Origin: an uncultured Syntrophobacter sp.
Lineage (GTDB): Bacteria; Desulfobacterota; Binatia; UBA9968
Assembly: GCA_964478485.1 (NCBI GenBank)
Contig: CAYZJE010000017.1
Coordinates: forward strand, 6,065-70,064
Length of the DNA: 64,000 nt
Reading direction: 5' to 3'
Shown here in pieces: positions 19,392 to 59,723 of the stretch. The notes below the pieces were generated by a model. That model was not told where the DNA came from. It saw nothing but the letters and a program-made list of their open reading frames with translations, and ran no database searches. The position numbers and the translations under genes were made by a program. Within the stretch, counting starts at the first letter, position 1. Each line of letters opens with the position of its first letter.

Positions 19392-19503
19392 TGTTGACCA
19401 CGCTGATTCCAGCGTGGACCATTAAATGGGGTTTCCAAAGGGGGCGAGCATCCCCTTTGGTTAAGGGCGGGGTCAATACCCCGCCCGCGAAGTGCCTTCG
19501 TTT
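19392..19503 (-). repeat. copy A of a roughly 115-bp three-hairpin intergenic repeat (forward form on the minus strand)
   Basis: minus-strand reading ...GGCACTTCGCGGGCGGGGTATTGACCCCGCCC..CCAAAGGGGATGCTCGCCCCCTTTGGAAACCCCATTTAATGGTCCACGCTGGAATCAGCGTGGTCAACAA, near-identical to copies at 46956, 50265, 54753 and 59622. Confidence 0.85.
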
Positions 19504-40211: not shown

Positions 40212-40667
40212 CTAGCCAGCCAGCGGATTGGCTTGTTGTTTTACCCCAGGCCGCTCGATAGCCGCTTCTTTCCAGCGGAACAGCCCGGCACGCATGTAAT
40301 CGGGATCATAGCCAAGCGATTCACAGAGGACTTCGAACGAGAACAGATGAGAGCGGTCGCGATCGAGAATCCACTCCTCCGCTTCGAGGTGGAGCGAGCG
40401 TTTCGGCCCCTTGCGCACGCCGACATGATCCTGATAGCAGCTCACCGCGTCACGCAGCACCGCCAGCATGAGCACCCGCTCCGGATCCATCGGCAGCTGG
40501 CGGGTCTGGGTCGATTGATACTGGCTCTCGATCAGCACGTCGGGCTGAAACACCGCCAGCGCTTTTTCCTCCATCGGCGCCCGCGGCGGATTTACCGCCT
40601 GGGTCCAAAACGGTTGCCGCTCACGGTTTGCTTTAGGCTTTGAATATTCCCCTTTTTTTCTCCTCAC
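40212..40667 (-). CDS. conserved hypothetical protein; paralog of 59244-59615
   Basis: shared blocks with the second copy: LMLAVLRDAVSCYQ / LMIAILKDAVECLE and AEEWILDRDRSHLFSFEVLCESLGYDPDYMRAGLF / AIEWVEDTGTEWLFSFTNICDLLGFDPHYMREVLL. Confidence 0.5.
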   Translation of the reverse strand: MRRKKGEYSKPKANRERQPFWTQAVNPPRAPMEEKALAVFQPDVLIESQYQSTQTRQLPMDPERVLMLAVLRDAVSCYQDHVGVRKGPKRSLHLEAEEWILDRDRSHLFSFEVLCESLGYDPDYMRAGLFRWKEAAIERPGVKQQANPLAG

Positions 40668-46955: not shown

Positions 46956-47078
46956 TCGTCGACCACGCTGATTTTAGCGTGGAACCCGTAACTGGGATTT
47001 CCAAAGGGGGCGGGCATCCCCTTTGCGATATTAAAATTGGCGCCGGGGTCAATACCCCGGCCGCGAAGTGGCTTCGTT
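46956..47078 (-). repeat. copy B of the three-hairpin intergenic repeat (forward form on the minus strand)
   Basis: contains CCACGCTGATTTTAGCGTGG, CCAAAGGGGGCGGGCATCCCCTTTG and GGCGCCGGGGTCAATACCCCGGCCGCGAAGTGGCTTCG. Confidence 0.85.
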
Positions 47079-50264: not shown

Positions 50265-50418
50265 TAGCCACTTCGCGGCCGGGGTATTAACCCCGACGCC
50301 AATTAAATTATCGCAAAGGGGATGTTCAACCTCCTTTGGAAACCCCATTTAATGGTTCCACGCTGAAATCAGCGTGATCAACAATAAGTGGTTCCAGGCT
50401 ACAAGCAGCGTAGTCAAC
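50265..50418 (+). repeat. copy C of the three-hairpin intergenic repeat, with the third hairpin module tandemly duplicated
   Basis: GCCACTTCGCGGCCGGGGTATTAACCCCGACGCC..CAAAGGGGATGTTCAACCTCCTTTGGAAACCCCATTTAATGGTTCCACGCTGAAATCAGCGTGATCAACAA plus a second GGTTCCAGGCTACAAGCAGCGTAGTCAAC. Confidence 0.85.
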
Positions 50419-54752: not shown

Positions 54753-54863
54753 CAGCCACTTTGCGGGCGGGGGTATTAACCCCGCTCTTAACCAAAGGGG
54801 ATGCTCGCCCCCTTTGGAAACCCCATTCAAAGGTTTCACGCTGCAAGCAGCGTGATCAAGCTC
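54753..54863 (+). repeat. copy D of the three-hairpin intergenic repeat
   Basis: GCCACTTTGCGGGCGGGGGTATTAACCCCGCTC..CAAAGGGGATGCTCGCCCCCTTTGGAAACCCCATTCAAAGGTTTCACGCTGCAAGCAGCGTGATCAAGC. Confidence 0.85.
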
Positions 54864-57319: not shown

Positions 57320-57580
57320 TCACACTCTAGGCCAGAACAGATTTAGGTACTCGATTTCATCTCGATCGGTAACGCGGTAATGAACTAGGATAGTACGGGA
57401 CCGGTAAAGGTAACTTGGGGAAGTCGGATTGTAAAAACTCGGAACTCTACCGGGTAAATCGGGGTTTCGAACGATTGCGGCCAATGTTTCTTCGAGATTG
57501 GTTAGATCGCCAGCACTAACTGATTTTTCGAAGACTGAAAGTTCCTCAAGAAATTTTTTTGAGAGAAGGTAGTGAGTCAC
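57320..57580 (-). CDS. RelE/ParE-superfamily toxin of a type II TA pair (start taken at GTG, VTHYLL...)
   Basis: about 87 aa, immediately downstream of and overlapping a Phd/YefM antitoxin gene; C-terminus RTILVHYRVTDRDEIEYLNLF fits the RelE/ParE pattern. Confidence 0.5.
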   Translation of the reverse strand: MTHYLLSKKFLEELSVFEKSVSAGDLTNLEETLAAIVRNPDLPGRVPSFYNPTSPSYLYRSRTILVHYRVTDRDEIEYLNLFWPRV

Positions 57581-57875
57581 GAAGGAGCCCTTTTTTCCGA
57601 GCCGCGGACAGGATTCTTTGGACCGTTGGTGCACCTGAAAGTTTGAGCACTTTCCCGGTTTTCACGTCATCCAACGATTTGCGCATGGCCCGCAACGCTT
57701 CCGGGTCTTGCCATAGTCGAGCGACAGCCTTCAAAGTTTGCAGATGCTCAAAGTTGACAATCACAGCTTTCGGTTTTCCTTGCTTTGTGACGATTACTTG
57801 ATCGCCATCTTCGACTTCCTCGACCAGGCGGAGGAATTTTTGTCTAGCTTCGCTTGTGGTTATGTAGCGGTCCAT
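57546..57875 (-). CDS. Phd/YefM-family type II antitoxin
   Basis: N-terminus MDRYITTSEARQKFLRLVEEVEDGDQVIVTKQGKPKAVIV typical of Phd/YefM. Confidence 0.75.
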   Translation of the reverse strand: MDRYITTSEARQKFLRLVEEVEDGDQVIVTKQGKPKAVIVNFEHLQTLKAVARLWQDPEALRAMRKSLDDVKTGKVLKLSGAPTVQRILSAARKKGLLRDSLPSLKKIS

Positions 57876-58119: not shown

Positions 58120-58830
58120 ATGGCCGAATTAACTGAACTCAAAAAGATTCTAGCGATGTCGTCGCGCATGCTCTTTAACTCTGGGCTGGTCGATTACAGC
58201 GGGCATATCAGTGTGCGCATTCCGGGTTCCGATCACTTGCTGATCCTGCCGCACCCCGTGAGCCGGGCGACCGTCAAACCAGACGACATGGTGGTGACCG
58301 ATTTCGAAGGCAAAGTGATCGAAGGGAAGTACAGAGCGCCCTCGGAAGTGTACATGCATGCGCGCGCCTACAAAGCGCGCAGCGACGTGCATAGCGTGGC
58401 GCATCTGCATAATCACATGGTGGCGACGCTCAGCATGGTCAACAAGCCTTTTTACCCGGCGTCTTCGAATCCGGGAGCGTTCTTTGGACCGGGCGCGCTG
58501 CCGCTCTACATGGACCCGGCATTGATTCACACGATCGAACAAGGCGATGCCGTGGCCAAGACACTGGGCCAAGCCGATGCCGTCATGTTGCGCGGTCACG
58601 GGTCGATGGTCGTGGCGCAATCGATCGAATGGGTGTTTGCCGCCTGCGTTGACTTGGAAGAAGCCGCATCGCGTTTCTACAAAGCATCGCTGCTCGGACC
58701 CGTGATGGTTTACAACGACGATGAAACCCAGCGGGTCATGAAAGGGCGGCGCAAGGATTCCGTTGTCCAGAAAGTTTGGGATCACAACGTTGCCAAAACC
58801 AAACTGGCCGGTCTAATGGATGGAATTTAG
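58120..58830 (+). CDS. class II aldolase/adducin family protein
   Basis: class II aldolase blocks (GHISVR, YMHARAYKARSDVHSVAHLHN, RGHGSMVVAQS); second member of this family in the window. Confidence 0.8.
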   Translation: MAELTELKKILAMSSRMLFNSGLVDYSGHISVRIPGSDHLLILPHPVSRATVKPDDMVVTDFEGKVIEGKYRAPSEVYMHARAYKARSDVHSVAHLHNHMVATLSMVNKPFYPASSNPGAFFGPGALPLYMDPALIHTIEQGDAVAKTLGQADAVMLRGHGSMVVAQSIEWVFAACVDLEEAASRFYKASLLGPVMVYNDDETQRVMKGRRKDSVVQKVWDHNVAKTKLAGLMDGI

Positions 58831-58880
58831 CGATTTTTCCGAAGTGGCCGGCTAGCATTCACGGGACAGACCTTCGAAGT

Positions 58881-59034
58881 GATTCTGCTGAAAAACCCTG
58901 CGTTCATCCTTCGAGAGCCTCAGAGCCCGTCCTGAGCTTGACGAAGGAACGAACGGGGAGGGGATTGATAACATTAAGAATTTTCCGTTCATGCTGAGCC
59001 CGTCGAAGCATTCCTAGGGGTTTTTCAGCAGATT
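58881..59034. mobile_element. MITE-like element: 17/18-bp terminal inverted repeats, roughly 7-bp flanking direct repeat, highly structured interior
   Basis: left TIR GATTCTGCTGAAAAACCC (58881-58898), right TIR GGGTTTTTCAGCAGATTC (59017-59034); flanking CGAAGTG / CGAAGTGG on both sides; internal repeats GTTCATCCTTCG...CGAAGGAACGAAC. Confidence 0.45.
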
Positions 59035-59243
59035 CCGAAGTGGCGGCGGTAGCGGCTTGGGCGCGCGTCGAATTCGCAGCGTCCGAGCCTAGCCCTTTTC
59101 ATCCAAGGCCGGATTGGCTTGGCCCAAGATCGTCAATGATGACGAGATTCACCAATATCTATAAGTTGGGGATTTTTTTCTTGCGTGGTACTAGGCCCTG
59201 TGGTATAGAATCCGACTTAAGTTGACGAGGAGATTGTACTCAA

Positions 59244-59615
59244 ATGTACGATGATTTCTTAGCAAGGATTCTAGAACCGGATATTTTTCTACCCTCGCAG
59301 TTTTACGGCTCGGGCGGGCTGTCGCGCAGGCTTGAGGGCGAAAAGCGGCTGATGATCGCGATACTCAAGGACGCGGTCGAGTGTTTGGAAAAATATCGCG
59401 ACGCGAGCAATGGACTAGGCCGCATCCAGTATCAAAACGCCATCGAATGGGTCGAGGATACCGGCACGGAATGGCTGTTTTCGTTCACTAACATCTGCGA
59501 TTTGTTGGGATTCGATCCGCATTATATGCGTGAAGTGCTGCTCAAACGAGAGAACCGATACATCAAGCCAGCGCGCACCCGAACGGTTTCCTTCGCCGCG
59601 ATGATGGCGCAATAA
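59244..59615 (+). CDS. conserved hypothetical protein; paralog of 40212-40667
   Basis: see 40212-40667; 123 aa. Confidence 0.5.
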   Translation: MYDDFLARILEPDIFLPSQFYGSGGLSRRLEGEKRLMIAILKDAVECLEKYRDASNGLGRIQYQNAIEWVEDTGTEWLFSFTNICDLLGFDPHYMREVLLKRENRYIKPARTRTVSFAAMMAQ

Positions 59616-59621
59616 TAATCG

Positions 59622-59723
59622 CAGACACTTCGCGGACGGGGCGTTGACCCCGTAGTTGACCAAAGGGGATGCTCGCCCCCTTTGGAAACCCCATTTAACG
59701 GTTCCCCGCTGCGACCAGCGGGG
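59622..59723 (+). repeat. copy E of the three-hairpin intergenic repeat, with a variant third hairpin
   Basis: CAGACACTTCGCGGACGGGGCGTTGACCCCGTAG..CAAAGGGGATGCTCGCCCCCTTTGGAAACCCCATTTAACGGTTCCCCGCTGCGACCAGCGGGG. Confidence 0.85.

Follow-up and report, generated by a model that had tools for sequence, protein, structure and literature searches.

In the 64-kb stretch of DNA that was analysed (hereafter the window), a gene for a class II aldolase/adducin-family protein (58120..58830, plus strand; Pfam PF00596, E = 1.4e-33) is followed, across an intergenic spacer, by a gene for a 123-aa protein (59244..59615, plus strand). Neither the 123-aa protein nor its paralogue elsewhere in the window (40275-40553, minus strand; 34% identity over 93 aa) matched any Pfam or NCBIfam model, and an exact-protein look-up of the former returned nothing on record. 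Just upstream of the aldolase gene, a Phd/YefM-type antitoxin gene was identified (57546-57875, minus strand; PF02604, E = 4e-14). An ORF with no Pfam match (57320-57634, minus strand) starts inside the 3' end of the antitoxin gene and runs downstream of it, and the region 57320-57875 on the minus strand probably encodes a type II toxin-antitoxin pair.

The spacer was aligned with those of six close relatives (alignment A2). A block of about 90 nt before the 123-aa gene (59156-59243) is near-invariant in this alignment, and blastn still recognises it in 28 of 80 orthologous loci, while other parts of the spacer vary freely. It holds a T-rich tract, the hexamer pair TTGCGT-17-TATAGA with TGn before the second hexamer (59181..59209, plus strand), and GAGGAG. 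Judged by its sequence, the block is probably a strong promoter with a leader, with the hexamer pair as the putative promoter of the 123-aa gene; a consensus promoter scan did not list this pair. Such conservation exceeds what a simple promoter would require. No similar block and no copy of the element described below are found upstream of the paralogue at 40275-40553.

Downstream of the aldolase gene lies a native hairpin with the 5' arm GCCGGCTAGC (58847..58856, plus strand) and the 3' arm GGTAGCGGC (59048..59056, plus strand). Several relatives (L120:1844-1930, L125, L129, L131 and L135) carry such a hairpin, GCCCGCTAGC...GCTAGCGGGC, just after the aldolase stop codon, and it is likely to be the terminator of the aldolase gene. 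The two arms flank an element of 155 bp (58881..59035, no strand assigned), which was thus inserted in the hairpin loop. When the RNA of the window is folded in silico, the sequences flanking the element are still predicted to pair together.

The element is bounded by two terminal inverted repeats (TIRs), for which a repeat search returned arms of 18 nt with 119 nt between them. The left arm, GATTCTGCTGAAAAACCC (58881..58898, plus strand), matches the family consensus exactly. The right arm, GGGTTTTTCAGCAGATTC (59018..59035, plus strand), differs at the third base from its tip (...GAATC), by a single change from GAATC to GATTC on the plus strand. This change can indicate that the copy in the window is no longer mobile or is decaying. 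The arms are complementary at 17/18 positions, as had been claimed in an earlier note on this DNA; the right arm, which that note had placed at 59017-59034, begins 1 nt further rightward, at 59018. Allowing up to 3 mismatches, only two sites in the 64-kb window match the TIR motif, where shuffled sequences lead to an expectation of 0.17.

Both ends directly abut the target-site duplication CGAAGT (left copy 58875..58880, right copy 59036..59041, no strand assigned). A flanking direct repeat of roughly 7 bp had been described earlier; it is present at both ends, but with a length of 6 bp, since the G counted as seventh base already belongs to the element, as its first base at the left end. A third near-copy, previously noted to the left of the element, corresponds to the 12-mer TTCCGAAGTGGC, which indeed occurs exactly at both 58837-58848 and 59033-59044. 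Its right copy spans the last 3 nt of the element, the duplication and the next 3 nt of host DNA. The copy on the left (58837..58848, no strand assigned) is native sequence outside the element and does not represent an element footprint, as homologous sequence (TTTCCGAAATTG/TGAC) is found in the same place in element-free relatives.

A repeat search of the element also confirmed the self-complementarity reported for its interior: 58907-58923 pairs with 58932-58948 (17 nt, 76%), and 58906-58923 with 58994-59011 (18 nt, 78%). Its coding capacity is restricted to spurious ORFs of 73 aa (58776-58997, plus strand) and 46 aa (58852-58992, minus strand), both of which cross the element, extend into the flanks and are to be ignored.

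Empty sites in relatives and copies in other genomes

With the product of the upstream aldolase gene as query, a scan of metagenomes yielded 80 orthologous loci with 86-97% amino acid identity, 69 of which retain the order of the aldolase and 123-aa genes. The terminal-repeat pair was found in none of the 80. In the closest relatives, L119 and L120, the aldolase gene shows 93.5% and 90.4% nucleotide identity to that of the window, respectively, and the spacer between the two genes measures 246 nt versus 413 nt in the window. The single large extra block of the window in alignment A2 is 58881-59041, which is the element together with one CGAAGT. Across the insertion point L119 reads ...GGACAGACTTTCCGAGTGG|GCAAACGG..., and both L119 and L120 carry one diverged counterpart of CGAAGT within an uninterrupted target. 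The comparison with an empty site, as proposed in the earlier note, thus recovered close relatives whose loci lack exactly the element and one copy of the duplication. According to these sequences, the insertion is confined to the lineage of the window and took place after its split from relatives that are 90-93.5% identical in aldolase nucleotides.

A scan of public genomes (one genome per species, query GGGTTTTTCAGCAGAWTC) revealed at least 115 loci with the repeat. A few matches with an ATTC variant lie inside ORFs and appear to be chance matches, and the remaining listed loci carry ...GAATC. Many of the listed loci are situated no more than about 150 nt from a contig end, a pattern of collapsed repeats. 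Among the loci listed, at least 19 two-armed copies belong to the family of the window element, which is included in this number; they are 129-155 bp long, with interiors about 87-97% identical over matched segments. In an alignment of 18 of these 19 copies (A3), in which the window element aligns end to end with 17 siblings, the 18-nt arms are near-invariant. BLAST comparison of the window element with the listed loci showed similarity that begins at 58880/58881 and stops at 59032-59035.

The window copy represents the long form of the family. An internal segment of 24 nt (58923..58946, no strand assigned), which extends the left-arm hairpin, is present only in this 155-bp form, found in A3 in the window and in L045:171-325 (87% identity to the window element over the full length), and is absent from the common 131-bp form. 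The hosts of the same-family copies are mostly MAGs labelled Candidatus Binatia or 'Deltaproteobacteria bacterium' (RIFCSPLOWO2, groundwater, soil), and one is a Nitrospirota MAG. The MAG JAUYJC01 alone accounts for seven loci (L033, L040, L055, L059, L088, L092 and L107), with complete two-armed copies in five. In the window itself, one copy only was found in 64 kb. The best identities in a translated comparison of the window with MITE-bearing MAG loci were 53-57% (L050, L066).

Directly outside GATTC...GAATC, the same-family copies carry duplications which differ from copy to copy (TAATCTT, AAGATTC, GTTATTC, TACCATTT, GAGTGT, GATTGT, AATCTG, GTTTTG, CGGAAA and GATACT). Inclusion of every two-armed element bounded by such ends among the loci listed, regardless of family, gave a set of 50 elements, to which Verrucomicrobiota, Planctomycetota and other groups contributed further miniature families with lengths of 96-245 bp. 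An exact duplication of 6-8 bp, a range into which CGAAGT of the window fits, was present in 32 of these 50 elements, and no exact duplication was found in the other 18.

The same invariant 18-nt end was also observed around quite different interiors in other phyla. Such loci in Verrucomicrobiota-type or unclassified MAGs are L003, L016, L023, L028, L032, L047, L103 and L108, and miniature elements of about 170 bp with this end occur in Verrucomicrobiota-type MAGs. Syntrophobacter sp. SbD2 (L010, L011, L024, L048, L057, L069 and L106) carries a high-copy element with the same end, at which many contigs are broken 115-131 nt from the end.

One further locus, L001, is a contig of 1228 nt from an independent read set (SRR9952630) whose sequence agrees with that of the window at 100% identity and which terminates 29 nt into the element. 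Assemblies break in this way at repeats, and the locus was therefore counted in favour of a repeat.

The strong self-complementarity of the element, together with its position between a gene end and a promoter and within the loop of a native hairpin, could suggest a structured regulatory RNA native to the locus, or an operator or terminator palindrome, instead of mobile DNA. The sequence is, however, absent at all 80 orthologous sites, including those of the relatives 90-93.5% identical in the flanking gene, and copies with duplications particular to their sites are scattered over unrelated loci of many genomes. A search of Rfam 15 gave no match overlapping 58838-59060 at E values up to 10, and compensatory changes were seen at 0 of 40 predicted pairs in the family alignment. 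With z-scores of -1.8 and -1.5, the region does not stand out in its folding energy. Given the empty sites, the dispersed copies, and the negative outcomes for Rfam and compensatory pairing, a native RNA or operator was rejected and is regarded as very improbable. The earlier note had reasoned that such an RNA or operator would be indicated by a lack of other copies together with conservation of the sequence at this locus in relatives; neither of the two was found.

Partner transposases and the mode of insertion

Among the loci listed, full-length insertion sequences (ISs) of 2023-2114 bp share the same 18-nt ends and are flanked by duplications of 6-7 bp. Complete ISs are present in L008, L073, L084, L085 and L116, with the duplications GATTGT, GATTGC, GTAATC and GAAAATC; in L095 both IS ends are present and a clean duplication is absent. 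Each full-length IS encodes a single ORF for an IS1182-family transposase of 534-556 aa with the Pfam domains DUF772 and DDE_Tnp_1_6. These partner transposases match the NCBIfam model for the IS1182 family transposase, NF033551, along its entire length with 248-270 bits; of the three partners tested, L018 (270.3) passes its cut-off of 270, and L095 (264) and L085 (248) fall just under it. Transposase ORFs lie 100-300 nt inside many of the listed ends, and homologues of the transposase adjoin the repeat in at least 14 loci, in MAGs of Binatia, Brocadiia, Opitutales, Verrucomicrobiota and a 'delta proteobacterium'. No homologue was found within the 64-kb window. Both sibling copies and a transposase-encoding partner with the same terminal repeats, which the earlier note had proposed to look for, are hence present in public genomes.

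Based on these results, 58881-59035 is very probably a miniature inverted-repeat transposable element (MITE), a non-coding DNA transposon of 155 bp which is not self-mobile and which an IS1182-type transposase encoded elsewhere would mobilise. It is shorter than about 300 bp and non-coding, has TIRs and a duplication that varies among copies, and is accompanied by dispersed siblings, a precise empty site and an autonomous element with matching ends. The earlier view of a non-autonomous transposable element is supported by the dispersed siblings, the transposase partner with the same TIRs and the empty sites. Similarity between the MITE and the ISs ends after 18-21 nt and their interiors are unrelated; as only the ends are common to both, the MITE is not a simple deletion derivative. 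Mobilisation in trans is what the common ends point to, and a partner IS presumably exists, or once existed, in the genome of the window.

For the insertion itself, the following course can be proposed. An IS1182-family DDE transposase, supplied by a full-length copy elsewhere in the cell, would bind both 18-nt ends and excise or copy the element. The element would then be joined to the target at staggered cuts 6 nt apart, in the loop of the native hairpin and 44 nt past the aldolase stop codon, with 50 nt now separating that codon from the element, and repair of the gaps would generate the duplication of CGAAGT.

A short, palindromic, intergenic and multi-copy element could also be a REP/BIME-like unit that owes its spread to recombination or to a RAYT (IS200/IS605-type Y1) transposase, the more so as another family of short hairpin repeats is present in the window. 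Against this stand true TIRs identical to the ends of DDE ISs and target duplications of 6-8 bp; to our knowledge, REP-type elements have neither. No Y1 transposase was seen beside any copy in an unsystematic look. We consider an origin of this kind highly unlikely.

The spacer and the neighbouring genes

An effect of the MITE on the expression of the 123-aa gene, as suggested in the earlier note, is possible. The putative promoter, whose -35 hexamer lies 146 nt past the element, is unchanged in the window. With the promoter block intact and the flanks of the element still pairing in the predicted fold, the insertion would appear to be close to neutral. Together with the consensus scan, in which neither the element nor its immediate surroundings showed sites resembling promoters or terminators, the promoter block and the predicted fold provide no evidence that the biology of the neighbouring genes was changed.

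It could be argued that the MITE has been co-opted by its host, in that the split aldolase terminator, or the hairpin of the element itself, changes how stable the aldolase mRNA is or how much transcription reads through to the 123-aa gene. The element does lie in the loop of a hairpin which is conserved in several relatives and whose arms change together (CTAGC/GCTAG, CTAAC/TTAG and GGTCTCGG/CCGAGACC), any transcript reading through it would form the 18-bp terminal stem of the element, and other small repeats occur in the same spacer of relatives. However, the intact promoter-like block at a distance of 146 nt and the lack of promoter- or terminator-like sites in the consensus scan speak against a regulatory role, and the high variability of the spacer among relatives suggests weak constraint. 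Since the insertion is confined to one lineage, there is also no sign of selection for the element. Co-option of the MITE is judged to be unlikely.

The spacer between the aldolase and 123-aa genes is a hot spot for small insertions. In L140:1038-1444 it contains a different MITE-like element with the ends CGTCATTCCGGGC...GCGGGAATGACG, and enlarged spacers of 386-582 nt are found in L124, L155, L159 and L169. In six relatives (L128, L147, L148, L152, L167 and L174) the spacer reaches 1358-1481 nt, a size that suggests the presence of an additional gene or of a more extensive insertion.

A second family of short repeats was observed in the window, with at least five copies (59626-59712; 19422-19494, minus strand; 54791-54844; 46976-47070, minus strand; and 50333-50365). 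Its core is a hairpin, CCAAAGGGG-N8-CCCCTTTGG, followed by CCCCATTTAACGG. One copy is located just past the 123-aa gene, and L118 and L123 carry the same repeat inside the spacer between the aldolase and 123-aa genes. In Rfam this repeat gave a weak sub-threshold match to Clostridiales-2, with 18.9 bits against a gathering score of 58.6.

Target sites and comparison with known elements

The flanks of the copies were examined for a common target, using 108 independent flanks drawn from the loci listed in the public-genome scan. GACCC begins at a distance of 13 or 14 nt from the element end in 26 of these flanks, which represent several phyla, as compared with only 5 occurrences at all other flank offsets. 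The longer motif TGACCCC, with at most one mismatch, was found in the phased zone of 29/108 flanks versus 4/99 controls (Fisher p = 3e-6). It is usually present on one side only, which can be either side of the element. Flanks with the phased motif are those of L005, L007, L008, L022, L023, L026, L027, L033, L040, L051, L053, L055, L065, L067, L073, L081, L083, L084, L091, L092, L094, L095, L097, L102, L107, L113 and L116, and L114 provides an uninterrupted copy of one motif-bearing target. In the window, the host DNA contains CGGGACA (58862..58868, minus strand), whose reverse complement, TGTCCCG, matches TGACCCC at 5/7 positions and sits 12-13 nt outside the element's end, in the same phase as TGACCCC of the sibling copies.

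These results could point to a choice of targets by sequence in this transposase clade, which is put forward tentatively, as a possibility less probable than its opposite. About 13/19 positions agree between the preferred target, GATTGT-N7-TGACCCC, and the end of the element itself, GATTCTGCTGAAAAACCCC, and this likeness may mean that the end-binding domain of the transposase also reads the target. Recognition of self-like targets is offered as a hypothesis. If it is true, the elements described here would make up a cross-phylum set of MITE families and ISs with self-like, phased target recognition.

Palindromes flanking the copies in L085, L088 and L092, the split hairpin of the window and the precedent of IS1272 raised the possibility that hairpins are targeted. 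General targeting of hairpins or stem-loops was rejected: the reconstructed targets show no excess of structure over controls (mean -17.8 versus -21.0 kcal/mol, p = 0.99), and stems bridging the two target arms are no longer than in controls (p = 0.49).

The phased motif gives the element some resemblance to a Tn3-family-derived miniature element (TIME), which would have ends of about 38 bp that start with GGGGTCA, about 19 nt outside the GATTC tips. Many copies do carry TGACCCC 12-13 nt outside the 18-nt repeat, so that the resulting string of 37-38 nt, GGGGTCA-N12-GATTCTGCTGAAAAACCC, looks superficially Tn3-like. The duplications, however, directly abut GATTC/GAATC, and the empty site removes exactly 58881-59041. 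TGACCCC is usually one-sided, on either side of the element, and the spacer between motif and end varies between copies of the same IS. The adjoining transposases are of about 550 aa and of IS1182 type, not of Tn3 type, and two ORFs of about 1000 aa near the ends encode PKD and LRR proteins. Tn3-family elements generate a 5-bp duplication, and the duplications found here are of 6-8 bp. An assignment to the TIMEs is rejected as extremely improbable.

For annotation, it follows that 58881-59035 is to be marked as a repeat or mobile element and not as a regulatory RNA. Repeats of this kind break short-read assemblies, as in L001, and they are markers of change that is recent and specific to one lineage, here in an uncultured bacterium of soil or sediment. 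The occurrence of the same 18-nt end in ISs and in many miniature elements of Binatia-type, Verrucomicrobiota, Planctomycetota, Lentisphaerota and Syntrophobacter MAGs provides specialists in transposons with a data set on one IS1182 clade and an apparent phased target motif.

The MITE family does not seem to have been described previously. Searches of the literature found neither the family nor its 18-nt end, the only match to the end sequence being an unrelated human primer. MITEs partnered with the IS1182 family are themselves known and ordinary mobile DNA, and have already been reported in Methanosarcina (PMC3852290). The ISMac2-related MITEs of Methanosarcina acetivorans measure 160-169 bp, with repeats of 25-26 nt and duplications of 0-4 bp (PMC3852290). 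Like them, the window family is non-coding, about 130-170 bp long and present in multiple copies, with short duplications and TIRs common to an IS1182-family partner. It differs in its bacterial hosts (Binatia-type and other MAGs, as opposed to archaea), in its end sequence, and in its repeats of 18 nt and duplications of 6-8 bp against 25-26 nt and 0-4 bp; no sequence relationship is claimed.

With the TIMEs, the element shares its small size, its non-autonomous nature and the superficially Tn3-like string GGGGTCA-N12-...GAAAAACCC; the boundaries, the length of the duplication and the partner transposase all disagree, and it is not a member of that group. The partners of the window family resemble IS1182-family ISs in their single ORF with DUF772 and DDE_Tnp_1_6 and in the full-length match to NF033551, whereas the window holds a non-autonomous derivative only. 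ISPse1 of Paracoccus, a member of the IS1182 family, is 1653 bp long with 16-bp repeats and a 4-bp duplication (PMC3281130); compared with such known ISs, the partners described here are larger, at 2.0-2.1 kb, and produce duplications of 6-7 bp. IS1272 of Staphylococcus, also of the IS1182 family, is reported to insert into stem-loops without duplication (PMC5678879), whereas the window family shows no general targeting of hairpins and duplications are its rule.
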